Shown in pieces: positions 6,635-63,298 of a DNA stretch of 64,000 nt. The stretch spans positions 384,001 through 448,000 of the forward strand of contig CAWJKZ010000024.1 of assembly GCA_963843575.1 (NCBI GenBank). The letters are read 5' to 3'. Within the stretch, counting starts at the first letter, position 1. Each line of letters begins with the position of its first letter. The DNA comes from an uncultured Acidobacteriota bacterium (lineage in GTDB: Bacteria; Acidobacteriota; UBA6911). Position numbers and translations under genes: made by a program. The notes under the pieces are model-generated. The model ran no database searches and was not told the origin of the DNA. It was given only the letters and a program-made list of their open reading frames with translations.

Positions 6635-7813
6635 CTATGCCCCGAAGACGATTCTTCCTGCGACCATCGTCTTGACGACCCGCAGCTGCGCGTCGAGAAA
6701 CACGAGGTCGGCGTCGGCACCCGGCGCCAGGATGCCGCGGATCTCCCCCATTCCCATGGCGCGCGCCGGGACGGCGCTGGCCGCGGCGACGGCCCCGTCC
6801 TCGGGCACCCCCATCCATCCCGCCAGGTTGCGCACCGCGCGGTCCAGGGTCAGGGTGCTGCCGGCGAGCGCCCCCTCCTCGTCGCGGCACACGCCGTTCT
6901 CCACCCGGATGCGCTTGTCGCCGAGGGGGTACAGCCCGTCGGGCATCCCCAGGGCGCTCAGGCCGTCGGTGACGAGCAGCGTGCGCTCGAGCCCCTTGAG
7001 CCGGACGACCAGTTGGACCGCCGTCGGGTGCACGTGCACCCCGTCGGCGATCACCTCGGCATAGACCCTGTCGTCGGACAGGATCGCCCCCAGCAGTCCG
7101 GGTTCGCGGTGGTGCAGCGGCCGCATGGCGTTGAAGGTGTGGGTTGCCAGTGAAGCGCCCGCAGCGATGGCGGCGCGGGCCTGCTCCTCGGTGGCATCCG
7201 AGTGTCCGATGGACACGCGGATCCCCAGGGCCACAGCCTGGCGCGTCAGCTCCAGCCCCGGGTCCATTTCCGGCGCAACCGTGATCCTGCGCACGCAGCC
7301 GCCCGAGACCTCGACGAAGCGGTGCAGGGAAGTCGCGTCGGCTTGCCGCAGGTAGGCGGGGTTGTGGGTCCCGCGCCTCAGCGGATTGAGGTACGGCCCC
7401 TCCATGTGGACGCCGATCGGCCGGGCACCTTCGGCGACCAGCGCGTGGTGCGCGGCATAGCCGCGCAGCGCGGTTTCCGTGTCGCCGTCCGGGGCGCTCA
7501 GGGTCGTGGCCAGAAACGAGGTCGTGCCATACCTTGCCAGCGTTGCGGCCACCGTCTGCAGTGTCTGGAGGGTGCCGTCCATCAGGTCGCAGCCGCTCGC
7601 GCCGTGCACGTGCAGATCGATGAAACCGGGTGCGACCGTCGCTCCCGGCTCGTGGATTTCGCGGCCGCGCGCAACCCGCGGCACGGCCGCGCCATCCAGG
7701 ACCTCGGCTATCCTGCCCGCGCGGATGCGCAGGAGCGCGTTGGCCCGGCGCTCAAACGGCGTCAGCAGGGTGGAACAACGTACCCAGACGTCCTTGTCAT
7801 TTTGAGCGATCAT
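6635..7813 (-). CDS. nagA: N-acetylglucosamine-6-phosphate deacetylase
   Basis: PGFIDLHVHG, HMEGPY, GHSDA, THTFNAM, IADGVHV, LAGSTL. Confidence 0.95.
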   Translation of the reverse strand: MIAQNDKDVWVRCSTLLTPFERRANALLRIRAGRIAEVLDGAAVPRVARGREIHEPGATVAPGFIDLHVHGASGCDLMDGTLQTLQTVAATLARYGTTSFLATTLSAPDGDTETALRGYAAHHALVAEGARPIGVHMEGPYLNPLRRGTHNPAYLRQADATSLHRFVEVSGGCVRRITVAPEMDPGLELTRQAVALGIRVSIGHSDATEEQARAAIAAGASLATHTFNAMRPLHHREPGLLGAILSDDRVYAEVIADGVHVHPTAVQLVVRLKGLERTLLVTDGLSALGMPDGLYPLGDKRIRVENGVCRDEEGALAGSTLTLDRAVRNLAGWMGVPEDGAVAAASAVPARAMGMGEIRGILAPGADADLVFLDAQLRVVKTMVAGRIVFGA

Positions 7814-9086
7814 CTCTACCCCCGGTTGGCGGTGCCGCGGCCCTGTAGGCGCGGTCGAGCAGTTCGATCGGGTGGGCCGTCTCGACCGGGATCCGCTGGG
7901 CGCGCAGCCCCAGTCCGATCTGGATGAGGCAGCCCGGGTTCCCGCTGACGACGACCTGCGCCCCCGTCCGTTTCACGTGGTCGATCTTGTCTGCCAGGAT
8001 GCGGGCGGCCATTTCAGGGTGTGTGATGTTGTAGATCCCCGCGGAACCGCAGCAACGGTCCGCGTCGCGCAACTCGACGAGCTGCAGCCCGGGGATGCGG
8101 GCCAGCAGCCTCCGGGGGGCGGCCTTGATCCCCTGGGCGTGCAGGAGGTGACACGGGTCGTCGTAGGTGACCTTGAGGGGGAGCCGTCCCATCTCCCCGG
8201 TGACCCCGAGCTCGTCCAGGAACTCCGAGATGTCTTTCACCCTCCGGCTGAACGCGGCGGCGCGGCCGGCATAGCGGGGATCGTCCTTCAGAAGGTGCCC
8301 GTACTCCTTGAGCATCGCGCCGCAGCCGGCGGCGTTGACTACGATGAATTCGGCCCTGTCGCCTTCGAAGGCGTCGATGTTCCTGCGCGCCAGGTCGAGC
8401 GCCCGGCCGACGTCGCCGTCGTGCAGATGCAGCGCGCCGCAGCAGGTCTGCCGCCGCGGGGAGCAGGCCGAAACGTCGTTGCGCTCGAGGACCCTCAGGG
8501 TCGCTTCATGCACCGGCCCGAAGAGTTCCGGCATCATGCACCCCTCGAAAAAGGCGACCCGGCTGCGCCCTTTTGCAGGCGCCGTGGCCGGGAGTGTGGA
8601 GACCGCGGCGGGAGGCACTTCGGGAAGGAGCGCCTCCATGGCTCGAATCCTCCCGGGGAGCAGCTTCAAGACTCCGGAGGCCCGCGCGAGTCTCCGGGCG
8701 CCGCTGCGCTGGTAGAGACGCAGCAGCCGGAACACGGCATGCATCAGCCGGCGGCTGGGGAAGACGGCGTCGAAGACGATCTTCCGCGCCAGCCGGGCCG
8801 GCAGCGACATCCTCGCGTGCTCGCGAATGGCGGCGCGCGCGTCGTTCATCATCAGCGAGAACCGGACCCCCGACGGACAGGCGGACTCGCAGGCGAGGCA
8901 CTCGAGGCACATGTGCATGTGCCGCCCGAATACCGGGCTTTCCGGCGCGACGCGGCCTTCCCCGAGCCCGGTGATGAGGTGGATCCGGCCGCGCGGCGAG
9001 TCGACCTCGCTGCCGAGCTGCAGGTAGGTCGGGCAGACGGCGAGGCAAAGGCCGCAGTGGATGCAGTCGAGATTAGGCTGCGGCAC
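7797..9086 (-). CDS. glcF: Glycolate oxidase Fe-S subunit
   Basis: CIHCGLCLAVCPTY...SPRGRI, CLECLACESACPSGV and two CCG domains; start about 9086-9103. Confidence 0.9.
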   Translation of the reverse strand: MPQPNLDCIHCGLCLAVCPTYLQLGSEVDSPRGRIHLITGLGEGRVAPESPVFGRHMHMCLECLACESACPSGVRFSLMMNDARAAIREHARMSLPARLARKIVFDAVFPSRRLMHAVFRLLRLYQRSGARRLARASGVLKLLPGRIRAMEALLPEVPPAAVSTLPATAPAKGRSRVAFFEGCMMPELFGPVHEATLRVLERNDVSACSPRRQTCCGALHLHDGDVGRALDLARRNIDAFEGDRAEFIVVNAAGCGAMLKEYGHLLKDDPRYAGRAAAFSRRVKDISEFLDELGVTGEMGRLPLKVTYDDPCHLLHAQGIKAAPRRLLARIPGLQLVELRDADRCCGSAGIYNITHPEMAARILADKIDHVKRTGAQVVVSGNPGCLIQIGLGLRAQRIPVETAHPIELLDRAYRAAAPPTGGRDDRSK

Positions 9087-9103
9087 GTTCGCCCGCCGAC
9101 ATC

Positions 9104-10378
9104 TCAGATCCCCCCGACGAAGCGGCCGCGGTTGAGCAGCGCCTGCGGGTCGAATTCCCGCTTGATTCGGCGCATGATCTCCAGCGCCGGCGCGTCGTAG
9201 CCCCACACGTCGAACCCGGCCTTGACCTCCGGCCGGACCGTCTCCACCACCATGTGCCCTCCGCTGCCGGCGCAGCGCCGGCGCAACACGGCCAGCCCGG
9301 CTCTGAGCGCGTCGGAAGCCGGGGCGCCGTCTTCCCAGAGATAGCGGCCATACAGGACGTACGTCCCGGCGTGACAGTACACTTCGAGCCGGGCCCGGAG
9401 GCTGTCGGCCATCTCCTGCATGCGCTGCGCCACGTCGGCCGCAGCACGGTGCACGACCGAGCACTTCACCCGCGCCTCCTGCCCGCCGGCCGGCGCTTCC
9501 CGAGCGCCGGCCGCCCCCTGCCAGAACAGGCGGGACTCCTGCGCACCGAGCTCGAGCAGGACTGCCCTCGAGCCTGCGGCCGCGATCTCGAGGGCACGGC
9601 CGGCCTGCCAGCGCACGGCGGGTGACGTGTCGCCGAGCCGGATCATCAGGACCCACGGCGCGGCCGCCCGGCCGGACGCCGTCCGGCTGAAGGCGGCGCC
9701 GTTCCAGGCTTCCAGGGCCTCAGGCAGCAGATCGGCCCGGAGGAGGGACTGTGCGGTCTCCAGCGCTGCGCCGAACGTGTCGCAGCCCAGGACGACGGTG
9801 GTGGCGTCTTCGGTGAGCGGCATGACCTTCAGGGTCGCCTCGGCGACGATCCCCAGGGTGCCAAGAGCCCCCGTGTACAGCTTGCACATGTCGTAGCCGG
9901 TGACGTTCTTGACGAGTTTGCCGCCGGCCTTGGTCTCCGTGCCGTCCGCGTGCACGACCCTGACGCCGAGCAGGAAGTCGCGCATGGTCCCGTAGCGGAA
10001 CCGGAGGGGGCCGCTGGTGTTGCACGAGACGAGGCCGCCGAGCGTGGCACGCTTCGGGTCCGGCGGGTCGAGCGGGATGAACTGGCCTTGACCGGCCAGC
10101 ACCTCCTGCACCTCTGCCAGGGGGGTGCCGGCCCGCACCGAGACCGTCATGTTGTCCGGTTCGTACTCCGCGATGCCCCGCAGCCCGGAGGTACGAATCG
10201 CCACCGCTCCCCGGGGGGCAAGGTTGCCCAGGTGCAGCTTCGTCCCTCCCCCGACCGGCAGCATGACGGTCCCCGCCGAAAAGGCACGAGCGGCGGCCTC
10301 GCGGAGCTCCGCGGTCGAACCGGGAGCTTCCTCGCATTCCACGGGGATATCGTCGACCAGGAAGGGAGCGTGCGCCAA
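9104..10378 (-). CDS. glcE: Glycolate oxidase FAD-binding subunit
   Basis: GGGTKL, EYEPDNMTVSVRAGT, GGKLVKNVTGYD, KREFDPQALLNRGR. Confidence 0.88.
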   Translation of the reverse strand: MAHAPFLVDDIPVECEEAPGSTAELREAAARAFSAGTVMLPVGGGTKLHLGNLAPRGAVAIRTSGLRGIAEYEPDNMTVSVRAGTPLAEVQEVLAGQGQFIPLDPPDPKRATLGGLVSCNTSGPLRFRYGTMRDFLLGVRVVHADGTETKAGGKLVKNVTGYDMCKLYTGALGTLGIVAEATLKVMPLTEDATTVVLGCDTFGAALETAQSLLRADLLPEALEAWNGAAFSRTASGRAAAPWVLMIRLGDTSPAVRWQAGRALEIAAAGSRAVLLELGAQESRLFWQGAAGAREAPAGGQEARVKCSVVHRAAADVAQRMQEMADSLRARLEVYCHAGTYVLYGRYLWEDGAPASDALRAGLAVLRRRCAGSGGHMVVETVRPEVKAGFDVWGYDAPALEIMRRIKREFDPQALLNRGRFVGGI

Positions 10379-28343: not shown

Positions 28344-29545
28344 GCAGGCCGATCACCAATCCGGGCAGTTGGACAAAGAAATCATCGAGCGTTCCGAGGA
28401 ACTGAGCCGATTGCTGTCCGGGAAAGCCCCTTTCAGCATGTTTCATCCTTAGCCGGGCGGGGTTGAAGCGCTGTATAAGGCCATTTTTGCCCGGAAGCAT
28501 AGATGTGCACCTATTGAACACTGGCGAGGGGACGCCAGGGATTCAGCAGACAACCACTGGTGGGATTCCCTCCGGCCGGATCGCTGCAATCGACGTCTCC
28601 GACTCTTTCACTCCTGCAAGTCACTGCAACTATGCTGCAACCTTTGCGCTAGCAATGGATTACGATCCTGGTATCCGGCATATCAATATGTCATCTCATC
28701 GGCACCCTTTCATCCACCGTCAGGGAAGTCTCCCTCCGACTGCTGGTCCGCACTGACGGGGTGTAAGTGGGTTACGTTATGGGGCGTCTCGGGGCTCCGG
28801 GTGGGGTTCACGCAGTTCGCTTGCACTCTCTCATAGTGATTCGTATTGCCGATTGCTCGGTGGGGTGGTGACGCCAAAATGGTGCGCTAACAGCCCAGGG
28901 CACCACGGGAAGAGCTCAGATTAGTTGCAGAAATCTCGCAATAGTTCCGACACCGTCAGGAAGTTCCAATCCCTTTTCGCATCGTTGGTTCCTATGACCT
29001 CGATTGCAGATTAATGCTGCCGACTAATAGTATCGTTCGCTATTGTGCCTCGCCAGTTGTGCGCCAGGGCATCAATAACGGTACTGGATACCAATGGATA
29101 GGATTGCTGCTGATTGCGCCTCCTGGGGCTTTACGCGAACCGGACGGGGCTGTTTTGCGATCGGCCACTGGGTGCGTTGCCGGGGCGGTCTGTGCCGACA
29201 TTCGCAGGTTGTGGCGACGTGGCCATCCCGGTGGCCATAAACCAAGTGTGACAAATAACCTGTTTGTCACAGCGCTTTCGCAGAGCGCCGCGCTGGAACT
29301 GCGGGCGAGACTGGATGTGATCGCCCGGATTCGTGTGATCATTTCTCACTGGCGGCGGGTGAAGGGTGCGTTAAGGGACGCATCTGCGCGGCTCTGGAGC
29401 GTAAGTTCCAGTAGCCGCAATGCAGGATGGATTCATCGGACCCGTTCCGACAGCGTCATTCCCTGCGAGGAGGAGAGTCGGAGGATGGGTGTATAATTGC
29501 GGACAACTCAGGGTTAGCTGTCTCACCCAGGATGGAATTGTGGCA

Positions 29546-29782
29546 ATGCCATCCCCGCATGACGTCACTCATCTGCTCCAGGCCTGGTGCGGCGGCGACC
29601 AGGCTGACCTGGATAAGCTCATCCCTCTGGTTTATGACGAAGTGCACAGGCTGGCGCATATCTACACGGTGCGCGAGCGGCCGGGCCACACGCTGCAGAC
29701 CAGTGCCCTGGTCAATGAGGCCTATCTGCGGCCCATCGATGCGTGGTTGCTGCAGGAGTTGAAACGCGGGGCGCGCGGATGA
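29546..29782 (+). pseudogene. TIGR02999-type ECF sigma factor with a large in-frame internal deletion
   Basis: DVTHLLQAW...LIPLVYDE...RERPGHTLQTSALVNEAYLR joined directly to the C-terminal AWLLQEL; stop overlaps the kinase ATG. Confidence 0.85.
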
Positions 29783-32613
29783 GTATCGATCGGTGGCAGC
29801 GGGTCAAGGACATCTACAACTCGGCCCTGGATCTCGAGTCGGGAGGGCGCGAGGCCTACCTGCGAGAGGCCTGCGGGGGAGACCACGCCCTGCGGCAGGA
29901 GGTGGAGGCTCTGCTGGCCAACCTGCCGGAGGCCGAGGGATTCATGAAGGATCCCGCAATGGAGGTGGCGGCCCGAGGCCTGGCCGGGGAACGGACGAGT
30001 GAGCCACAACCGGACTATGCAGGCCGGTCCGTGCGGCAATACCGGATTGTGGAAAAGATCGGCGAAGGCGGGATGGGAGTGGTCTACCTGGCGGAGGATG
30101 GTTCACTCCATCGGAGAGTCGCGCTGAAGTTTCTGCCGCCGGAGATGCAGCAGGACGCGACTGCTCGAAAGCGGTTCCTGCGCGAAGCCCGTTCGGCAGC
30201 CGCTCTGGATCATCCCTACATCTGCCACATCAACGAAGTGGGCGAGGCCGAGGGTGCGGACTTCATCGTCATGGAGTACGTCGAAGGCCAGATGCTGATG
30301 GACAAGCTCCGTCAGGGGCGGTTGCCGCTGAAGCAGGTCCTGCAGATCGCCACAGAGGTTACGGAGGCGCTGGAGGCCGCGCATGGCAAGGGGATCATCC
30401 ATCGGGACCTGAAGCCCGCGAACATCATGCTGACACCGACGGATCACGCGAAGGTGATGGACTTCGGGCTGGCCAAGCAGTTGATTCCGCCTGGAGGAAT
30501 CGAGAGCCAGGAAAAGTCGGGGACGGCGCTGACCCGGAGCGGCATGACGCTGGGGACTTTGGCGTACATGTCGCCGGAGCAGTTGCGCGGGGAGACCGTC
30601 GATGCCCGTTCGGACATTTTCTCGTTTGGCGTGGTGTTGTACGAGATGCTGGCCGGGGTTCATCCCTTCAAGAAACCGACCGGGATGGACACGGCCGGTG
30701 CGATCCTGAAGGATACCCCTCCGCCCCTGGCAGAGAGTTGCCCGGACGTTCCGGTTCTGCTCCAGCACGTCGTGAAGAAGATGCTGGCCAAGGATCCTGA
30801 GGATCGGTATCTATTGATGCACGATGTGAGGACCGACCTGAGAGAGTTGCTCGATGAGTCGAACCGGCCGGTACGGGGGAAGCGCAGAGGGCGGAAACCG
30901 TTGTACTTGATTGCCGCAATCGCGTTGGTGATTGTCGGCGCGGGGATCTGGGCGTTGTTCCAGTTCTCTCCTCGCGGGGCGGCGCTGCCCCCGCCGAGGT
31001 TTGTGCCCATAACAGCGTCCGGTGGCGCAAAAGGTTTTCCGTCACTTTCACCGGATGGAAACTGGATCGCGTTTGCCTGGACGGGTGAAAAGGGAGGTAA
31101 CCAGGACATCTACGTCAAGGAGTTGGAAGGCCCCGGCTTCAATCGGCTGACGACCGACCCGGCAGTTGACAACTTTCCCGCGTGGTCTCCCGATGGCCGC
31201 CAGATCGCTTTCCTGCGACGCTCGGGCGATCGATGGATACTGTACCTCATCAGTATGGTGGGCGGTGGAGAAAGGAAGCTGGCTGAGGTAGGCCTCGGAC
31301 GACCGAGCTGGTCGCCCGATGGGAAGAACATCGCATTTGTGGACCGAAAATCACCGAAAGATCCTTCGAGCATCTGGTTGTTATCGGTGGATACGCTGGC
31401 AACCAGGCAGATGACCACCCCGGAGGTAAGTTACTACGGTGACGATCATCCGGCCTTTTCCCCCAATGGTCGCTACCTTGCGTTCATCAGGCAGATTGAC
31501 GCTTTGACACCCATTCTATATGTCATGCATCTTCCCGGTGGAGAGCCCAAGGTTGTGACGGACCATAACGGCCCCTGGTGGCCATGCTGGACTGCCGATA
31601 GCCGCGAGATTGTCTTCATTACTGACCCTATGACAGGGGAAGCGTCGTTGTGGCGGATCGTCATGGACGGCGGGGAGCCTCTCAGAGTCCCGGCTCGTGG
31701 CGAGCGGGTTCGTCAGCCCACCATCACCGGGAATCGTCTGGCCTACGTAAGCGATACCTCCAACTGGGACATGTGGAGACTGGAATTGACGGGGCAGGAC
31801 GCGATGAAACCGCCATCCAGGCCCCTATTGTCCTGGACATCAGATGAGTCTGATCAGGGTATTTCACCCGACGGAAGCAGGATAGCTTTCGCGTCCGACA
31901 GTTCAGGAAGCATGGAGATCTGGATCTGCAATGCCGACGGCACAAAGCCGATGAAGCTCACCGACATGAAGGCGGGAGACACCGGCAGTCCAGACTGGTC
32001 TCCTGACGGGAAGAATATCGCTTTCGATTCCACCAGATCGGGGAGTAACGACATCTATGTGGTGAGCGCAGAAGGAGGGCCGGTGCGCCGGATCACGCCA
32101 GATCCCACGGAAGATGCGGTCCCACGCTGGTCACGGGATGGTCGTTGGATATATTTCGGCTCGAACAGGGGCGGAAGCTGGCGGATCTGGAAGGTGCCGT
32201 CCGATGGAGGCAACGCGATTCAGATCACCAGGGACGGAGGCCTGGTGGCCCGCGAATCAGCCGACGGGCAGTTTGTGTACTACCGTGGTTATTATGATCT
32301 TCAGAAAAGAGGTATCTGGCGAGTTCCCGTTGCGGGCGGCCCGGAGACGCTTGTACTGGACAGGCAGATTCCTCTCTGGACTTGGCATTTAACGGGCCGG
32401 GGCATCTACTTTATCGATCACAATGCTAAGCCTGTGGCGATCATATGCTTTTACGATTTTGCGACCCAGCGTGTAAGAAATCTGGCTCCCGTCCATAGTG
32501 ATCCGGCCTTTCGGATAGGAGGGGGCTTCAGCGTCTCGCCTGACGATAAGTGGCTTGTCTACGAGGGTGGGATCGTCGCTTCCGATATTAGGATGATCGA
32601 CAACTTCCGCTGA
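29779..32613 (+). CDS. Hanks-type Ser/Thr kinase + TM + PD40/TolB beta-propeller
   Basis: IGEGGMGVVY, VALKFL, HRDLKPAN, DFGLAK, YMSPEQ; many WSPDG repeats. Confidence 0.95.
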   Translation: MSIDRWQRVKDIYNSALDLESGGREAYLREACGGDHALRQEVEALLANLPEAEGFMKDPAMEVAARGLAGERTSEPQPDYAGRSVRQYRIVEKIGEGGMGVVYLAEDGSLHRRVALKFLPPEMQQDATARKRFLREARSAAALDHPYICHINEVGEAEGADFIVMEYVEGQMLMDKLRQGRLPLKQVLQIATEVTEALEAAHGKGIIHRDLKPANIMLTPTDHAKVMDFGLAKQLIPPGGIESQEKSGTALTRSGMTLGTLAYMSPEQLRGETVDARSDIFSFGVVLYEMLAGVHPFKKPTGMDTAGAILKDTPPPLAESCPDVPVLLQHVVKKMLAKDPEDRYLLMHDVRTDLRELLDESNRPVRGKRRGRKPLYLIAAIALVIVGAGIWALFQFSPRGAALPPPRFVPITASGGAKGFPSLSPDGNWIAFAWTGEKGGNQDIYVKELEGPGFNRLTTDPAVDNFPAWSPDGRQIAFLRRSGDRWILYLISMVGGGERKLAEVGLGRPSWSPDGKNIAFVDRKSPKDPSSIWLLSVDTLATRQMTTPEVSYYGDDHPAFSPNGRYLAFIRQIDALTPILYVMHLPGGEPKVVTDHNGPWWPCWTADSREIVFITDPMTGEASLWRIVMDGGEPLRVPARGERVRQPTITGNRLAYVSDTSNWDMWRLELTGQDAMKPPSRPLLSWTSDESDQGISPDGSRIAFASDSSGSMEIWICNADGTKPMKLTDMKAGDTGSPDWSPDGKNIAFDSTRSGSNDIYVVSAEGGPVRRITPDPTEDAVPRWSRDGRWIYFGSNRGGSWRIWKVPSDGGNAIQITRDGGLVARESADGQFVYYRGYYDLQKRGIWRVPVAGGPETLVLDRQIPLWTWHLTGRGIYFIDHNAKPVAIICFYDFATQRVRNLAPVHSDPAFRIGGGFSVSPDDKWLVYEGGIVASDIRMIDNFR

Positions 32614-54626: not shown

Positions 54627-55805
54627 TCAGGAGGGTTCGGCTCGGTTTGCGGATCCTGCCCGTTTCGTCACCATGAGCAGGTCGAGCGGGTCGGGGAGGC
54701 TGGGAAACAGGGACCGGTACTTCAGCGACACCCTGTTGTATGCGCAGATGAAATCCGGTACCCGGTGCGGGTCCGAGTTTGCCGGGTCGCAGGCAATCGA
54801 TGCGGGGCACACCGAGCAGGCGCGACTGTAGCTGCACTCGGCGCACCTGCCGTAGGAGGAGTACCGCTCCTCGAGGTCACGGAACAAGGCCGTATCTGCT
54901 ATCGTCTTCAGGTAGTCGGAATGACGTTGCCGTAGCCGGGAATCACGAAAATCCCCCAGCTTGAGCGGTGCGAGTGCCTGGTTGAGCAGGTCGGAAGAAA
55001 ATTCCCGGTAGGATTCGGCGAACAGCACGCAACCGTACGCCTGGCCGTCCACGTCGATGACGAGGTTGCTCCCGGCGACAGCGCTGCACGGTTCGCGGGT
55101 CTCCCTGCCCCCGGCGTGCTTGCGGAAAAGTGCGACCGGCACCGTGCCCGTTTCTCGCAGGCAGCGCAGGCTGTCCGCATATACCCCGGCGAACTGGTCG
55201 TCGAGGGCCGCGACATCCCCGACTTTCCACTCGGGCCACGGGCGCATCGCCGGGAACAGGATGAGGTGGCAGACTCCTTTCTCCATGAAGTACCGGACGG
55301 ATTCTGAAAGGTACCGCACCGTGGCGGGGGTCTGGATCGCACTGATGCGCAGTCTCCGGCTGAAGAGATCCGGGGTATTACGCCGCAACCGGTCCAGGAG
55401 AGAGTCCAGCGCATCGAACGACGCCTGTTGCCGGTAATCCTGCGCTGAGGCGACGCCGTCGAAGCTCAGTTGAACCTGGAATCGATGGTCGTCGAGAAAA
55501 CGGGCGATTTCATCGGTGATCAGCAGCCCATTTGTACTGATTTCGTAATCGACCTTCCGGTCTGGGGGCAATCGGGAAGCCGCGTACCCGACTGATTCGA
55601 GGATCGAGTCCCACTGCAGCAGCGGTTCGCCGCCTGTGAAGTGGATCCTGATGTTCTCGGTGCCCCGGGCGATGGCGAAATCCACCGCCGCCCTGAGCGT
55701 GTCCGATGCCGTGTCGATGTGCTTCCGGGCAGTCTGGTAGCAGTACCTGCAGCTCAGGTTGCACTCGGTCGTGAGGATGAGGGTAAAGGAACTGAAACCG
55801 ACCAC
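54627..55805 (-). CDS. Radical SAM protein with SPASM-type auxiliary cluster domain
   Basis: CNLSCRYC, FTGGEPLL, STNG, LSFDG; C...DGQAYGC...CAECSYSRACSVCP...IC. Confidence 0.93.
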   Translation of the reverse strand: MVGFSSFTLILTTECNLSCRYCYQTARKHIDTASDTLRAAVDFAIARGTENIRIHFTGGEPLLQWDSILESVGYAASRLPPDRKVDYEISTNGLLITDEIARFLDDHRFQVQLSFDGVASAQDYRQQASFDALDSLLDRLRRNTPDLFSRRLRISAIQTPATVRYLSESVRYFMEKGVCHLILFPAMRPWPEWKVGDVAALDDQFAGVYADSLRCLRETGTVPVALFRKHAGGRETREPCSAVAGSNLVIDVDGQAYGCVLFAESYREFSSDLLNQALAPLKLGDFRDSRLRQRHSDYLKTIADTALFRDLEERYSSYGRCAECSYSRACSVCPASIACDPANSDPHRVPDFICAYNRVSLKYRSLFPSLPDPLDLLMVTKRAGSANRAEPS

Positions 55806-55818
55806 AACAGCCCTGTAA

Positions 55819-56052
55819 TCAGCGGCAGGGTCCCACAGGTGGAATCCGATTCTTCATCAAGTAAGTTTCCGAAACAAAGCCGATGACCTGCTCGTCCGGC
55901 TGGGTCAGGGTCAGCGAATTCCTGAACTCGCGTATGACGCCGCGGGTGTAGCAGAGCTGGTCGAGGTTCTGATCATAAAGCGCATTTTCTATGTTTTCCA
56001 GCATCTGTCGCAGGTGACCGATTGTAACGTCCTGTCCTTCGGTGACTGACAT
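55819..56052 (-). CDS. 77-aa peptide, candidate radical SAM substrate or partner
   Basis: Strong AAAGGAG RBS; 13-nt gaps to both the upstream kinase and the downstream rSAM gene. Confidence 0.75.
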   Translation of the reverse strand: MSVTEGQDVTIGHLRQMLENIENALYDQNLDQLCYTRGVIREFRNSLTLTQPDEQVIGFVSETYLMKNRIPPVGPCR

Positions 56053-56065
56053 GGTTGTTCTCCTT

Positions 56066-58888
56066 TCAGAACACGCCCTTAGTCGCCTTCAACATCCAAA
56101 TCTGTCCGGCCGTTTCCTCGTTCGAAAACACGAGCCACTTTCCATCCCTGGATAAATCGAATAGCCCGCTGGATTGGGCTCCTCCAAACTCGATCTCCGG
56201 CGCGAACGGGGCCGCAACGCCGGAGGCCGAGACCGTGCGCAAGGTAACTCGTTTCTCGCCCCACGAACCGCTGACCAGGAGATCGCCCGTGAGCGCGTCC
56301 CAGCGGACGAACTTTGCGTTCGCCCCCCGGGTGCACTGTTGGATCGCCCCGCCTCCGTCGGCCGAAACGAGCGCCACGTCGGTGCCGCCGGTGTTCCCGT
56401 CGACGAAAGCGAGCCGCTTGCCGTCCGGTGACCACACCGGGCCATAGGCCATCGCGGATCCGGCCGCGACGCGCTGCCGGGCCCCTAATTGCCCCGGATC
56501 GCCCCTCTCGACGGCTTCTCTGACCCGCACCGTGACTATTTCAGAACCGGTGCCCGTCAGTGACACGAAGGCGAGCATGGAGCCGTCCGGCGACCAGGAG
56601 GGCGTGTGGCTTTGGGGTGGGCAGACCGGCAGCACGCGCCCGCTCGAGGAGGAAACCACCAGGACCTCGCGCTTGTTGCCTGTCAGCCGATAGCAGGCGA
56701 TCCACTGTCCGTCGGGTGACAGTGCCGGGTGTTGCAGGTTTCCCTGCCGCTCCGTGATGGGAGTGGGGTCCCCGTGGGGGATTCCGTCCTTCAGCGGTTC
56801 CGCCCAGAGGTCGCCTTCCGTGCCCGAGAGCTTCGGGGTGAACACAACGGACGAGCCGTCCGCGGCAATCGCGGGGAGCGACAGCGCCCACTGATTGACC
56901 GGCAGTGACGCCATCGCACGCGAGAGCCTGTTGAGGAGCAGGAGTTTCGCCCGGGAGTTGATGGTTGCGTACACGAGCCGCTTGCCATCCTTGGACAGGC
57001 TGGGGTGACGCTCCTCGGGCACGCCGTCGGTGACACGGAAGGGCGCTCCCCCGTTTGCCGCGACGCACCATATCGCACACCTGCCGCCCATCAGGCCGCA
57101 GTAGTAGATCCGTTCCCCGTCCGAGGACCAGGCCGGATCATACTTGTGGGTCCCGTCGCTGGTGATGCGCACCCGTCTGGCGCCGCCGGCCCATTCCGAC
57201 GTCCAGAGGTCCTGGTTTTCCACGTAGCAGACCCTTCGGCCGTCGGGCGACCATGCCGGCCGGCCCGTGTCTGTCATGAGCCCGCTCAGGGCTGTGGCCG
57301 ACGACGGGTTTCCGAGGGGTGCCACCGCGACGCGGTAGCCGTTCGGCAGGATCTGGGTGTAGGCGATGTGCAGATTGTCCGGCGATATGGCCGGCTCGAC
57401 CGCGTCTGATATCAGGAGGGTCGAGCCGCCGCCGAGCAGCCTGATTTTGCGGATCTCCGGCCTCCCCTCGGTCCGGGATGAATAGGCGATATTGGATCCG
57501 TCCGGGAACCAGGCAGGATCCGTGTCCTCCGCAGGACTTTCCGTGATGTTCCGGCGGGTGGTGCCGTCCAAGTCGGTCACGTAGATCTCGGAATTCCCTG
57601 AGGCGTTTGATGAAAACGCGATCCAGTTGCCGTCGGGTGCAATATCCGGCTGGCCTTCGACGGCAGTGCTGGCGGTTACGGGCGCGACTTCAAAACTCGG
57701 GACAGGCGGCACCGTGCGGCGTGACCATTGCCAGAGCACCCCGGCGGTAATCAGCAGGCAGGCGAGGATCGCGACCCCCGCGAATCCGGGCTTGATCAGG
57801 CCGGCAAACGAGAGGCTTTTCCATTTCGGCCCAAGGGCAATGAGGCGTTGCTCGCGTATCTCCTCGAGTTCGACCTTCACGTCCGCCATCGTCTGGAAGC
57901 GGCGCGCCGGATCCTTGCGCAGGCAGCGATCGACCACTCCGCGCAACGGGTCGGGCACGCCCCTCTGGAGCGGAGCCGGCTCCTCCTTGATGATTGCCGC
58001 CAGGGTCGAAATGAAGTGCTCTCCTTTGAACGGGCGCCGGCCGGACAGCATCTCGTAGAGCATCGACCCGAAGCTGAAGATGTCCGACCGGCAGTCGAGC
58101 GGCTGGCCCTGCGCCTGCTCCGGCGACATGTACGCCGCCGTGCCGAATACCTTTCCTTCCAGCGTCGAAGATTCCTCGTGCCCTGTCCTCGCGGTCGCGG
58201 CGGCCCCGGACGGAACCCGCGCGAGGCCGAAGTCGAGCACCTTGACGAAGCCGGCAGCGGTGATCATGACGTTGGAGGGTTTCAAGTCCCGGTGAACGAT
58301 CCCTTTTGCGTGGGCGTGAGTGAGCGCGTCCGCAACCTGGACCGCGTACTTCAGCGCGTCGTCGAGCGGCAGGCCGTTCGGGCCGATCACCCGGTCCAAC
58401 CGCTTTCCGTCGACCCACTCCATCGCGATAAAGTCGAAGTTCTCCGATCTGTCCACGTCGTAAACGGTGAGGATATTGGGGTGGCTGATCTGGGCGAGCG
58501 CGCGCGCTTCCTTCAGGAAACGCCGCCGGCCGTCGTCGCTGCCAAGCGTCCCGGGCGCGAGGATTTTGATCGCAACCTCGCGCTGGAGCTTTTCATCGCG
58601 GGCGCGGTAGACGACACCCATGCCACCCCGTCCCTCCAGGGCCTCGATCATGTACGACGAAAACCTCGACCCTGGCGCAAGACCACCGCGGTGCCCGGCA
58701 GAGCCCGCCGCCCTCTCCGTCGTCCCGGCCATCGCGGAAGCGTCCTGTAAGAGGTGCGATTTGACTTCCCGCCGCAGCTCGGCGTCGCCGGCACAGGCTT
58801 CGTCCACGAAGGCGTCGACCTTGCCGGTAGGGAGGGTGCGTGCTTTGTCGACGATGCCCGAAATCCGGTTGTAGCGTTCAGGGTCCAT
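56066..58888 (-). CDS. Hanks-type Ser/Thr kinase + TM + PD40/TolB beta-propeller
   Basis: GRGGMGVVY, VAIKIL, HRDLKPSN, DFGLAR, YMSPEQ; WSPDG repeats. Confidence 0.95.
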   Translation of the reverse strand: MDPERYNRISGIVDKARTLPTGKVDAFVDEACAGDAELRREVKSHLLQDASAMAGTTERAAGSAGHRGGLAPGSRFSSYMIEALEGRGGMGVVYRARDEKLQREVAIKILAPGTLGSDDGRRRFLKEARALAQISHPNILTVYDVDRSENFDFIAMEWVDGKRLDRVIGPNGLPLDDALKYAVQVADALTHAHAKGIVHRDLKPSNVMITAAGFVKVLDFGLARVPSGAAATARTGHEESSTLEGKVFGTAAYMSPEQAQGQPLDCRSDIFSFGSMLYEMLSGRRPFKGEHFISTLAAIIKEEPAPLQRGVPDPLRGVVDRCLRKDPARRFQTMADVKVELEEIREQRLIALGPKWKSLSFAGLIKPGFAGVAILACLLITAGVLWQWSRRTVPPVPSFEVAPVTASTAVEGQPDIAPDGNWIAFSSNASGNSEIYVTDLDGTTRRNITESPAEDTDPAWFPDGSNIAYSSRTEGRPEIRKIRLLGGGSTLLISDAVEPAISPDNLHIAYTQILPNGYRVAVAPLGNPSSATALSGLMTDTGRPAWSPDGRRVCYVENQDLWTSEWAGGARRVRITSDGTHKYDPAWSSDGERIYYCGLMGGRCAIWCVAANGGAPFRVTDGVPEERHPSLSKDGKRLVYATINSRAKLLLLNRLSRAMASLPVNQWALSLPAIAADGSSVVFTPKLSGTEGDLWAEPLKDGIPHGDPTPITERQGNLQHPALSPDGQWIACYRLTGNKREVLVVSSSSGRVLPVCPPQSHTPSWSPDGSMLAFVSLTGTGSEIVTVRVREAVERGDPGQLGARQRVAAGSAMAYGPVWSPDGKRLAFVDGNTGGTDVALVSADGGGAIQQCTRGANAKFVRWDALTGDLLVSGSWGEKRVTLRTVSASGVAAPFAPEIEFGGAQSSGLFDLSRDGKWLVFSNEETAGQIWMLKATKGVF

Positions 58889-60945: not shown

Positions 60946-63054
60946 TCAACGGCGAACCCCGGCACGGTTACCGGTCTCGGGGTCGAAGACGGCGTTGCGC
61001 AGGAAATCCTCGCTGGACCACGGGGGGCCGCCACCACCGAGGTACTGCTGGAACCACTCGAGGTGGGCTGTGTAGTAGAGCGCCATTTCGTACCAGTTCG
61101 GCCAGTGGCCGGCGTTGGCATAGATGATCAGTCTAGAGGGGACGTTCATCTTCTGCAGTGCCGTGAAGAACTGGAGCGACTGGGTGTAGGGGATGCGGTA
61201 ATCCCGTTCGCCGGAGATTACGAGGCAGGGGGTCTTGAAGTTCTTGACGTAATTGTCGGGCGACCACTTTTCGTACAGCCCGGAATTCCAGGGCTGGCCT
61301 TTGAGGTCCCACTCGGGGAACCAGAGTTCCTCGGTTGCCCCGAAGAACGCCTTCAAGTTAAACAGGCCCATCATCGAGGCGAGCGCCTTGAAGCGGGTCG
61401 TGTGCCCCTCGAACCAGTTCATCATGTACCCGCCGTAGGACCAGCCCATCGCGCCCATCCTGTCGCGGTCGACATACGGGAGCTTCTCGAGGGCGTCGGT
61501 CACCTTCATCAGGTCCTCGAACACGCGGCCGCCCCAGTCGCCCGAGATCTGCGCGGTGAACTCCTGGCCGTAGCCGGTGGAGCCGTGCGGGTTTGGGAAA
61601 GCGACGACATATCCGGCGCCCGGGTAGATCTGCCAGTCGCCCCGAAAACCGTCCGTCCACTGCATCTGCGGGCCGCCGTGGACATTCAGGATCAGAGGGT
61701 ATTTTCGGCCCGCCTCGAACCCGTGCGGCTTGACGATGAACACCTGGATCCTGGTGCCGCCGGAGCCTTCAACCCACACCGACTCGGCCGGGCGCACGTC
61801 GACCTCGGCCGAGAGGGCGTCGTTAAAGCCGGTCAGGCGCGCCGGCGCCGAGGCTTTTCCTCCGGCCATCTCTGCCATGTAGAGTTCGACGGGCTCACCG
61901 GTGGAATGCCGGACATAGAGGATCCGGTCGATCCCGGCGGGCGCGAATTGGACTATGGTCTTGTCCCGAAGCACCTCCGAGATGCTCCCGGACGAGACGT
62001 CCAGTCGGTTGACCGTGGTCTGGCCCTCAAGCGGGCCGGAGAAGTAGACGCTCTTCGAATCCGCGGCCCACTCAAACTCCTCAACCCAGTTCTGGAAAGA
62101 CCCGGTGACGACGGAGGAAGATCCCTTCGCCACGTCGTAGAGCGCAAGGCGGAAGAGGTCGGACTCGTAGCCGGGGCTTGTCTGCATGCGGTAGGCGATG
62201 TACCTGCCGTCCGGTGAGTACTTCGGGCTTCCGTCGTAGGCCGGGTTCGACGCGGTTATGTTGCGCGGCAGCGCCGTCGGGTTTCCCAGCGGGATGAGCC
62301 AGAGATCGCCGTTCGTCGACGAAGCGGGATTCTTGTCGTGGTTCGAGACGAACACGAGCGTCGAACCGTCCGGAGAGAAGTCGTACTGGAGTGGCCCCCC
62401 AAGCTGGAACGGGGGCGAGTCGAAATCGCCGGGGGTGAGGTCCCGCACCGCGCCCGTGTCGACGTCGGCCACCAGAATGTGGGTGCGGGTGCCGTCCTTC
62501 CATTCAGTCCAGTGTCGGTAAAGCAGGCTGTTCGCCGTGTGCGCCTTGATCGCCCCTTTGTCCCGGCGCTCGGCGATCTTCTTGTTGCAGCCGTCGTCGG
62601 CGCCGCATTCGGGGTAGACGTCCGAAGAGAACACGATCGATTTCCCGTCCGGCGACCAGATCGGTTCGGAAACACCCGTCGAGACGTGGGTGAGCTGCTT
62701 CGCCTCCCCACCGGCGGCGCGGAGCAGGTAGAGATTCGCGTCGCCATCCCGCGCACTGATGAAGGATATCCACCCGCCGTCGGGCGAGTAGAGCGGGGCG
62801 CTTTCGCCTTTGCCATAGGTCAACTGGCGCGTGGTGCGGCTGCCGAGGTCCATGTGCCAGACGTGGCCGGCGCGCCTGGCGCGCCCCAGGTCGGATATCG
62901 TGACCGTAAAAAGCGCCGACCTTGCGTCGGGCGAGACCGCGACTTCCGAGATCCCCTTAACGCGGTAAAGGTCCTCGATCGTGAATGCCCGTTTCTCCGC
63001 ACAGACCGAACTCACCTGCACCAGCACCCAAATCGCCACCAAACACACTCTCAT
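60946..63054 (-). CDS. S9 family peptidase (prolyl oligopeptidase/acylaminoacyl peptidase)
   Basis: Signal peptide, propeller repeats, VHGGP, GWSYGG, ERDYR, AGHW. Confidence 0.93.
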   Translation of the reverse strand: MRVCLVAIWVLVQVSSVCAEKRAFTIEDLYRVKGISEVAVSPDARSALFTVTISDLGRARRAGHVWHMDLGSRTTRQLTYGKGESAPLYSPDGGWISFISARDGDANLYLLRAAGGEAKQLTHVSTGVSEPIWSPDGKSIVFSSDVYPECGADDGCNKKIAERRDKGAIKAHTANSLLYRHWTEWKDGTRTHILVADVDTGAVRDLTPGDFDSPPFQLGGPLQYDFSPDGSTLVFVSNHDKNPASSTNGDLWLIPLGNPTALPRNITASNPAYDGSPKYSPDGRYIAYRMQTSPGYESDLFRLALYDVAKGSSSVVTGSFQNWVEEFEWAADSKSVYFSGPLEGQTTVNRLDVSSGSISEVLRDKTIVQFAPAGIDRILYVRHSTGEPVELYMAEMAGGKASAPARLTGFNDALSAEVDVRPAESVWVEGSGGTRIQVFIVKPHGFEAGRKYPLILNVHGGPQMQWTDGFRGDWQIYPGAGYVVAFPNPHGSTGYGQEFTAQISGDWGGRVFEDLMKVTDALEKLPYVDRDRMGAMGWSYGGYMMNWFEGHTTRFKALASMMGLFNLKAFFGATEELWFPEWDLKGQPWNSGLYEKWSPDNYVKNFKTPCLVISGERDYRIPYTQSLQFFTALQKMNVPSRLIIYANAGHWPNWYEMALYYTAHLEWFQQYLGGGGPPWSSEDFLRNAVFDPETGNRAGVRR

Positions 63055-63298
63055 AACCACCTCGGATGGGGACGGACCAGAGCTACTCTTTTGATTATAT
63101 AGGGTTATGGGATTTCTTTGCCCAAAAAGGGCCGCCATTTGAGATTTTTTGGGCCGTTTTCTTCAAATAAGGTATTTTCATTATTCGGCATCCACCTATT
63201 TGCAGGTAAAGGGGCCGAAAATCGCAAATATGGGGCTCAATTGGAGCAAAATGCGCCGGAAATGCATGATCCCAAATACTTTACTGAGGTCCGTCCCC

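Follow-up and report, generated by a model that had tools for sequence, protein, structure and literature searches.

A cluster of three genes encoding a membrane protein kinase, a small protein and a radical S-adenosylmethionine (SAM) enzyme is found in an uncultured Acidobacteriota bacterium of soil type, within a 64,000-nucleotide stretch of contig CAWJKZ010000024.1 (hereafter the window, whose positions are used throughout). According to the open reading frame (ORF) listing, the three are arranged in tandem on the minus strand at 56066-58888, 55819-56052 and 54627-55805, and the two spacers measure 13 nt each (56053-56065 and 55806-55818). An initial annotation of the window had named this co-oriented trio a candidate new RiPP (peptide made by ribosomes and modified after translation) or peptide-signaling system. 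Its coordinates and spacers proved exact, its translation of the small ORF is identical to the one obtained here, and the designation stands, as the trio recurs across relatives.

The first gene (56066-58888) starts with ATG and encodes a Hanks-type Ser/Thr kinase of 940 residues, as judged from the ORF, Pfam and hydropathy. The Pkinase model PF00069 matches residues 86-333 (57890-58633) with 163.2 bits against a cut-off of 31.7, and the features of Hanks-type enzymes are present, including the VAIK lysine, a canonical HRDLKPSN loop and DFG. The catalytic domain is followed by a hydrophobic segment near residue 361, predicted from a hydropathy window to be a single membrane segment (residues ~361-385; 57734-57808), and by an extracytoplasmic, TolB-like propeller region (residues ~404-940; 56069-57679). 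Pfam recognizes seven PD40 stretches there (179.5 bits) as well as DPPIV_N, and a TolB propeller model reaches 207.5 bits, below its cut-off. The protein is therefore the membrane kinase with a PD40 propeller that had been described earlier. Hanks kinases number 32 in the host genome, and six of these carry PD40.

The second gene (55819-56052, ATG start) encodes a putative substrate peptide or small protein of 77 residues, a designation based on the ORF, its position and a shuffle test. The strong ribosome-binding site ascribed to it is indeed present: AAGGAG (56060-56065) begins immediately 3′ of the kinase stop codon and lies 7 nt before the ATG. A complete ORF of at least 77 codons appeared in the 260-nt gap in 141 of 20,000 shuffles. 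The G+C content by codon position is 0.58/0.34/0.66, the third-position value (GC3) of 0.66 comparing with 0.78-0.86 in neighboring genes. Two cysteines, Cys34 and the penultimate Cys76, can be read directly in the sequence together with a Pro-rich tail (residues 66-77; 55822-55857) that ends ...PCR, and the peptide contains no Cys-x-Pro, CPP or Cys-X3-Asp/Glu. The helical body that had been described along with these features is seen only in a weak single-sequence AlphaFold2 (AF2) model (pLDDT 59), which places helices at residues 11-27, 34-46 and 53-65 and leaves the last 12 residues unstructured. By analogy with the Cys-then-Pro of related peptides, the tail with its penultimate Cys is the proposed modification site. 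The small ORF has no match in Pfam or NCBIfam, in agreement with its earlier placement outside known precursor classes.

The third gene (54627-55805) starts with GTG and encodes a radical SAM/SPASM enzyme of 392 residues, identified by Pfam, NCBIfam, alignment and PDB search. The Radical_SAM model PF04055 gives 51.5 bits (cut-off 29.5), placing the protein in the superfamily, and the SPASM model PF13186 gives 16.9 bits, under its gathering threshold of 21.5. In an alignment of 23 homologs (A1), however, C15, C19 and C22 of the CX3CX2C motif for the radical-SAM [4Fe-4S] cluster (55740-55763) are invariant, as are C240, C259, C321, C324, C330, C333 and C354 (54744-55088). The latter are arranged as C240-x13-G-x4-C259, C321-x2-C324-x5-C330-x2-C333 and C354, which corresponds to the seven-Cys SPASM pattern with its generally quoted spacing and is enough for two auxiliary clusters. 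Since the motif starts at residue 15 and only ~14 residues precede the first cluster Cys, the enzyme has no RiPP recognition element (RRE), as the initial annotation had also read.

Structural comparison leads to the same conclusion. The nearest solved structures in a PDB search are CteB (5wgg, E = 3.8e-28) and anSME (4k36, E = 3.7e-19). Positions 4-271 of the enzyme profile align to CteB residues 93-370, and the RRE of CteB therefore has no counterpart in the window enzyme; in the anSME alignment, enzyme residue 16 pairs with anSME residue 13, so that the two proteins have matching N-terminal starts. In NCBIfam, 76 models match the enzyme at E <= 0.1, none of them at its cut-off. The PapB family ranthipeptide maturase (NF047865) is the closest with 119.7 bits against a cut-off of 340; the other models include HxsB (95.5 against 370), QhpD (82.2 against 453), anSME (TIGR03942; 67.4 against 349.45) and the SCIFF maturase (TIGR03974; 65.6 against 425). 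All of these nearest families are Cys-directed peptide or protein maturases. By kinship the enzyme is a Cys-directed maturase too, belonging to no named family. A word-indexed protein search recovered 426 relatives at E <= 0.001. In the loci compared, the closest enzymes are those of L026 (50% identical) and of L052, L027, L028 and L055. A metagenome scan with the window enzyme returned three loci only, none of them close. No fused, longer version of the enzyme turned up when such proteins were searched for, which is weak evidence.

The trio is conserved well beyond the window. A collection with one genome per species holds 576 confirmed enzyme stretches, 79 of which were examined as loci, and a definition based on the enzyme alone (tblastn E <= 1e-50 over >= 290 residues) yields 53 family loci. 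A kinase domain lies <= 3.5 kb upstream on the same strand in 42 of the 45 family loci that have more than 3300 nt of upstream DNA, and the end of the propeller is usually found 300-500 nt ahead of the enzyme. In two of the three misses a kinase is still next to the enzyme or close by, differently arranged. In L054, a 1474-residue Pkinase-nSTAND1-WD40 protein directly upstream (L054:32-4456) replaces the membrane PD40 kinase; in L050 the kinase-PD40 gene is present in divergent orientation; and in L037 a PD40 gene is followed by two inserted opposite-strand genes, then by peptide and enzyme. Among the 26 loci with a weaker radical SAM match, such a kinase occurs in L061 only, a family member cut by the contig end. 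A genome search for relatives gave eight loci with a kinase upstream in all eight, the two most distant (L024 and L025, enzymes 28-31% identical) carrying TPR instead of PD40.

An even sample of the phylum gives a similar picture. Of 301 genomes, 15 contain the enzyme, and of the 274 with good quality, 14 do. The counts from this sample and from the genome search are not independent, because both partly overlap the species collection and the genomes are related. Within the 1.5 kb of upstream DNA available per locus, a PD40 gene ends 328-870 nt upstream in 13 of 16 loci outside this genome. By their record titles, loci come most often from Acidobacteriota, and also from Eisenbacteria, Krumholzibacteriota, Aminicenantes, Fibrobacteraceae and Gemmatimonadetes. 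The cassette was not found in a genome of the same genus (81% complete). That genome was rejected as evidence for insertion or deletion of the cassette, as it is only ~69% identical in nucleotide sequence and not syntenic.

Flanking genes vary between the window and the related loci compared. In the window they are a divergent Fpg glycosylase and a DinB gene upstream, and an alpha-L-fucosidase and a hypothetical gene downstream; the kinase is thus not preceded by an extracytoplasmic function (ECF) sigma factor and no sulfatase lies among the genes at 46-64 kb, two absences that had been pointed out before. Exporters, proteases, regulators and ECF sigma factors are not recurrent neighbors of the cassette among the compared loci. 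In several phyla, a seemingly active Hanks kinase, a Cys-bearing small ORF and a radical SAM/SPASM enzyme that lacks an RRE are inherited together in fixed order. The three genes are kept together while their surroundings change, and nothing else nearby is conserved. The neighborhood comparison proposed in the initial annotation therefore shows kinase and small ORF recurring beside homologs of the enzyme, rather than homologs devoid of these neighbors. As in RiPP precursor-maturase pairs, a short ORF adjoins a maturase and its position is conserved in relatives.

All 53 family loci contain a same-strand ORF in the gap between kinase and enzyme. An ORF in such a gap is expected by chance in GC-rich DNA, and homology is therefore the real test. 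Of the 5092 six-frame ORFs from all loci, a jackhmmer search seeded with the L031 ORF recovered 20, every one of them located in the gap. Other seeds gave further groups and pairs, and nine, including the window's peptide, stayed single. When a 16-member profile was compared with 1.84 billion cluster representatives, 176 proteins were found at E <= 0.001. Among the best 150 of these matches, 148 are 58-198 residues long, lengths that mark them as a family of small, free-standing proteins. Cassette peptides overall measure 43-198 residues and are predicted to be helical, and none of 32 tested matches a Pfam or NCBIfam model. An AF2 model computed on a 109-sequence alignment shows a long helix at residues 8-30 (pLDDT ~98) followed by a poorly ordered tail.

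The tail is where cysteines and prolines gather. Among the matches listed, all 148 contain Cys, 114 contain C.P, 100 contain CPP and 89 contain CPPP, the CPP and CPPP counts being biased upward because the search profile itself includes those positions. CPPP often occurs as two or three repeats behind a short hydrophobic-Arg-hydrophobic stretch. The residue that follows it is Glu in 26 cases, Asp in 17, Leu in 15, Pro in 12, Arg in nine and Thr in eight, so that Asp or Glu account for 43 of 109. The helix may precede the Cys units, follow them or flank them on each side. Shuffle tests on 60 gap ORFs picked by position alone, each with 2000 shuffles, bear on the same point. Cys followed by Pro within three residues was counted in 56 of 140 instances, compared with 34.0 +/- 4.9 in shuffles, and 15 peptides contain CPP, compared with 1.2 +/- 1.1; neither value was reached in any of the 2000 shuffles. 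Cys-X3-Asp/Glu, the motif of PapB substrates, is present in 20 of the 60 peptides (shuffles 14.2 +/- 3.1, reached in 98 of 2000), and 12 peptides carry Cys in the last six residues (8.1 +/- 2.5, reached in 198 of 2000). The initial annotation had looked to related loci for conserved peptide residues. These exist in one subfamily, as Cys/CPPP and the long amphipathic helix, and the window peptide has no CPPP.

The small protein also evolves faster than its partners. In nine of ten close locus pairs it is less conserved than any of the other three parts (enzyme, kinase domain and sensor), and in four close pairs the sensors are 73-77% identical and the peptides 44-62%. Subfamilies of the peptide tend to follow kinase clades. 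In the phylum sample, the helix/CPPP peptide profile detects a match in one of 301 genomes, an undercount because only 16 candidates per genome were scored.

The window's own peptide is assigned to the cassette by position and build rather than by sequence. The peptides of the loci with the closest enzymes (L026, L052, L027, L028 and L055) also lack CPPP and differ from one another, and the window peptide is an orphan. MAFFT places its V-T-I-x-x-L start, a later Arg/Leu/Pro stretch and the Pro tail with Cys76 in the register of the family, an alignment that requires a 16-residue insertion between the start and the Arg/Leu/Pro stretch and that does not amount to a statistical test. By analogy of build, with predicted helices and then a Pro-rich tail with Cys, the peptide is taken as a member of the cassette. 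The ESM Atlas holds no match for it, nor for an L031 peptide.

In a quick kinase-domain tree, the 44 kinases linked to the radical SAM enzyme are much more clustered than shuffled labels: they require eight changes, compared with a mean of 24.1 in shuffles, none of 500 being as low. The enzyme tree matches the kinase clades only partly (11 changes against a minimum of four), with agreement in the terminal pairs; L026 is sister to the window in both the kinase and the enzyme tree, with support of 100 and 94. A strict catalytic pattern is intact in 35 of the 44. A hydrophobic segment follows the kinase domain in 40 of the 44. The kinase domain is constant, while the sensor varies: most loci have PD40, L054 has WD40 preceded by a STAND NTPase, and L024 and L025 have TPR.

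The initial annotation had likened the N-terminal extension of the window kinase to that of an ECF-linked kinase. The resemblance holds over the first ~50 residues, which align with the N-terminus of this kinase type, and does not extend to the cassette, since only three of the 44 related kinases share the extension besides the window's. ECF sigma and the extension were accordingly rejected as parts of the system. The kinase to which it had been compared lies elsewhere in the window (29420-32613), where a PD40 kinase is preceded by a truncated ECF sigma ORF covering the first 64 of 185 profile positions. Its N-terminal ~85 residues are nearly identical to those of a kinase on contig C22 of the same genome, and the two are sisters on short branches of the kinase-domain tree. 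Judging from these sequences, a sigma-kinase pair seems to have undergone a recent segmental duplication.

Several known systems resemble the cassette in part. PapB, which acts on PapA in the freyrasin pathway, is likewise a radical SAM/SPASM enzyme, directed at Cys in a peptide encoded alongside it. Its NCBIfam model is the best match, aligned over residues 4-331. Many cassette peptides carry Cys-Pro-Pro-Pro-Asp/Glu, a form of Cys-X3-Asp/Glu, or a Cys near the C-terminus. PapB links Cys to Asp/Glu and can do without a leader, so that such enzymes are able to work without a leader-RRE pair (PMC12715619). It can also join Cys to a C-terminal residue (PMC12373016), a link that would suit the ...PCR end of the window peptide. 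PapB differs in having an RRE at residues 1-86 (PMC12715619), whereas the window enzyme has none, and the match remains at 119.7 bits with a cut-off of 340. Moreover, the window peptide lacks Cys-X3-Asp/Glu, and an acidic residue after CPPP is frequent in the family without being obligatory. The available parts of both articles describe no kinase with PapB (PMC12715619; PMC12373016).

CteB, the best structural match, is a thioether-forming radical SAM/SPASM enzyme with two auxiliary clusters that acts on SCIFF. However, it has ~92 extra N-terminal residues, the SCIFF model scores 65.6 against 425, and the peptides are unrelated, with none of 32 matching a model. anSME shares the absence of an RRE, the N-terminal CX3CX2C and the seven-Cys SPASM, and acts on Cys-then-Pro in a protein substrate, but its model is below cut-off (67.4 against 349.45) and no sulfatase is nearby. 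QhpD/QhpC and CrpC/CrpA offer precedents for Cys-based thioethers on substrates the size of small proteins. CrpC puts ranthionine links on a protein-sized substrate (PMC13692751). The QhpD model reaches 82.2 bits, below its cut-off of 453, and the cassette is not accompanied by amine dehydrogenase genes.

Kinases are found in other peptide systems as well. Class III/IV lanthipeptide synthetases and TOMM kinase/cyclase proteins (NF038150, NF038151, TIGR03903) place a Hanks-like kinase domain in a RiPP setting. Their matches to the cassette kinase are confined to the kinase domain (92.6 against 650 and 136.6 against 705.75 bits); the cassette has no lyase or cyclase domain, and its kinase is a membrane receptor with a propeller. 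In the Agr and ComQXP systems, a peptide, a modifying enzyme and a membrane receptor histidine kinase are encoded in one operon together with response regulators. The cassette is similar in bringing together a fast-evolving peptide, a modifying enzyme and a membrane receptor kinase. Unlike these systems, it uses a Hanks-type kinase and other chemistry, and has no linked response regulator or exporter.

The cassette is interpreted here as a system in which the radical SAM enzyme modifies the small protein at Cys and the kinase domain serves as a dedicated partner, a reading to which somewhat better than even confidence is given. The enzyme would bind three [4Fe-4S] clusters and use the small protein as its substrate. 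The modified Cys would sit in a Pro-rich stretch, which in the window would be the C-terminal tail with its ...PCR end. An intramolecular thioether cross-link of the sactipeptide or ranthipeptide type would be the likeliest product, because the nearest characterized relatives of the enzyme make such links and its relatives all target Cys in peptides or proteins. The helical body would be the part that is recognized; given that the enzyme lacks an RRE, recognition would be direct or helped by the kinase.

How the kinase is coupled to this chemistry is a more tentative matter. A cytoplasmic link, with the small protein or the enzyme as a partner that the kinase domain would phosphorylate or bind, is considered plausible at slightly less than an even chance. 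The propeller would read a signal outside the cell, and this signal would in turn control whether the cross-linked small protein is made or active; the small protein would act as the private downstream effector of the kinase. This link is favored over an outside ligand loop because the kinase domain is constant while the sensor changes, because no export or processing genes recur, and because conservation within the peptide is highest in a long helix resembling a binding surface, and not in the core. Both readings are kept, and the peptide may be a ligand of the kinase or its cytoplasmic substrate. The broader proposal of a self-contained signaling device in abundant uncultured bacteria of soil and sediment, in which the cross-linked peptide is the private ligand or effector of a eukaryote-like Ser/Thr receptor kinase and the trio diversifies together into many specificities, is rather unlikely. 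If true, it would mean peptide signaling on Hanks kinases instead of two-component systems; an RRE-less enzyme would recognize a long helix, and Cys-Pro-Pro-Pro would be a new modification site.

Several observations weigh against modification at Cys with a dedicated kinase partner. The chemistry is extrapolated, as the enzyme falls below every curated cut-off. The PapB-substrate motif Cys-X3-Asp/Glu is only marginally enriched in the peptides. The window peptide has no relatives by phmmer in the 5092 local ORFs, nor among 5.8 billion proteins in a word-indexed search. Against the helix/CPPP profile it scores E = 9.7, which leaves it outside that family, and when the helix profile is split in two, its ranks are 40 and 255 of 5092, placements that are suggestive at best. 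The V-T-[VI] start offers Thr or Ser in 13 of 20 aligned peptides (counted on the printed alignment); this Thr is not invariant and is therefore weaker as a universal phosphorylation site. The kinases linked to the enzyme do not form one clade, at least four of the eight changes being forced in the quick tree, and this polyphyly implies that the partnership was gained or lost several times. Finally, the nine kinases without the strict catalytic pattern form one clade, associated with helix/CPPP peptides, in which the loop reads HRD-[IVL]-[NTS]-P-x-N and the catalytic-loop Lys is replaced by Asn, Thr or Ser. This replacement could reflect an altered substrate or a pseudokinase-like role. The clade comprises L029, L031, L032, L034, L051, L058, L065, L069 and L073, all with HRD and DFG kept.

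Among other explanations, an autoinducer loop would have the modified peptide trimmed, exported by unlinked machinery and sensed by the PD40 propeller of the co-encoded kinase. PD40/TolB-type propellers bind peptides, the peptide evolves fastest in nine of ten close pairs as in pherotype systems, and its subfamilies tend to track the kinase clades. Most partner kinases also have an extracytoplasmic propeller, with the hydrophobic segment after the kinase domain in 40 of 44. Yet no exporter or protease recurs beside the cassette, and the N-termini of the peptides, read by eye with no predictor applied, do not resemble signal peptides. The kinase-STAND-WD40 partner in L054 is probably cytoplasmic, distant relatives have TPR, and in four close pairs the sensor remains 73-77% identical while the peptide drops to 44-62%. 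The loop is accordingly given a modest probability, well under even. The main chemical rival is an oxidation of the formylglycine type, in which an anSME-like enzyme would convert the Cys of Cys-x-Pro to formylglycine, or introduce another non-thioether change, and the small protein would stay whole. The enzyme has the build of anSME, with no RRE, ~390 residues and full-length alignment to TIGR03942 (residues 13-339) and 4k36. Pro at +2 is common (C.P in 114 of 148 of the matches listed), reminiscent of the sulfatase motif Cys-x-Pro-x-Arg, and Asp or Glu after CPPP in just 43 of 109 cases indicates that an acidic acceptor is not obligatory. The score for anSME (67.4 against a cut-off of 349.45) is nevertheless lower than that for PapB (119.7), no sulfatase is found nearby (46-64 kb), and the window peptide lacks Cys-x-Pro, which together make this chemistry improbable.

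Two further proposals concern the nature of the locus itself. A defense or conflict module, anti-phage or inter-bacterial, would account for a patchy, horizontally moving cassette with a hypervariable small protein: the enzyme is present in 15 of 301 phylum genomes and was not found in the same-genus genome (81% complete), several phyla are represented, the small ORF is hypervariable, one partner kinase contains a STAND NTPase and the kinase domain matches PADLOC kinase models generically. These PADLOC matches are limited to the generic kinase domain and the radical SAM core, however, while the peptide has none, and the window flanks are ordinary metabolic and repair genes with no nuclease or other effector. 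Such a role is thus judged very unlikely. A viperin-like function, raised by PADLOC pVip matches, was rejected, since the matches span the radical SAM core only. It is hardly credible, too, that the 77-codon ORF is non-functional here and that only kinase and enzyme matter. The ORF is an orphan in sequence with a GC3 of 0.66 against 0.78-0.86 in its neighbors, but the interval between AAGGAG and the ATG is ideal, the genes are spaced by exactly 13 nt and a comparable ORF arose in just 141 of 20,000 shuffles. The contrast between second- and third-position G+C is coding-like, and every related locus has an ORF at the same position.

New peptide chemistry comes in large part from radical SAM/SPASM maturases, whose usual partners are RRE domains, proteases and exporters. 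Here, the sole constant partner is a Hanks-type kinase. Searches of the full-text literature, with subscription-only papers and supplements outside the scope, found no radical SAM/SPASM enzyme tied to a Hanks kinase and no mention of these peptides. Within Pfam and NCBIfam, no model covers the enzyme at cut-off or the peptides at all. The cassette is regarded as a radical SAM pair for peptide maturation in which the fixed partner has no precedent, the small proteins include a new family and the RRE is absent, and it is probably a new tie between peptide chemistry and cell signaling. It is not rare, with 576 enzyme relatives at one genome per species and 15 of 301 phylum genomes. If the link is functional, it would provide a testable handle on the signals or targets of some of the numerous orphan Ser/Thr kinases in Acidobacteriota, together with a new small-protein family, a new candidate modification motif and an RRE-less enzyme whose substrate recognition departs from the textbook model.

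A promoter and terminator scan gave results no better than shuffled DNA, and the sequencing runs matching this DNA are three DNA runs (shares 0.05-0.09), with no RNA run listed. An S9 prolyl-oligopeptidase with PD40 is encoded 2 kb upstream on the same strand (60946-63138, minus), the Fpg and DinB genes intervening; it is not kept beside the cassette in the other loci examined.

The host genome contains a second, apparently decayed copy of the cassette (L009, contig C22, 43000-53355, mainly 7839-10354). Its enzyme paralog is 41% identical to the window's; past the final SPASM Cys the frame no longer follows the family pattern and continues up to the end of the contig. In front of the paralog lie an ORF that combines a Cys-x-Pro-Pro-Asp unit with a C-terminal helix, and a 228-residue membrane-plus-PD40 fragment without a kinase domain. 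A second intact pair of kinase and radical SAM enzyme on C22 was rejected, as the fragment is what is left of the cognate gene and the full-length kinase just upstream belongs to the ECF-linked type. Variation in the number of peptide units is seen elsewhere in the family. Tandem paralogous peptide genes precede one enzyme in L039, L043, L049, L053, L089, L025 and G295 (L116/L117), and some single cassette peptides contain two helix units. In the relatives with TPR kinases, related small ORFs are found downstream of the enzyme in L024 (one, at 7950-8189) and upstream in L025 (two, at 7791-8488).

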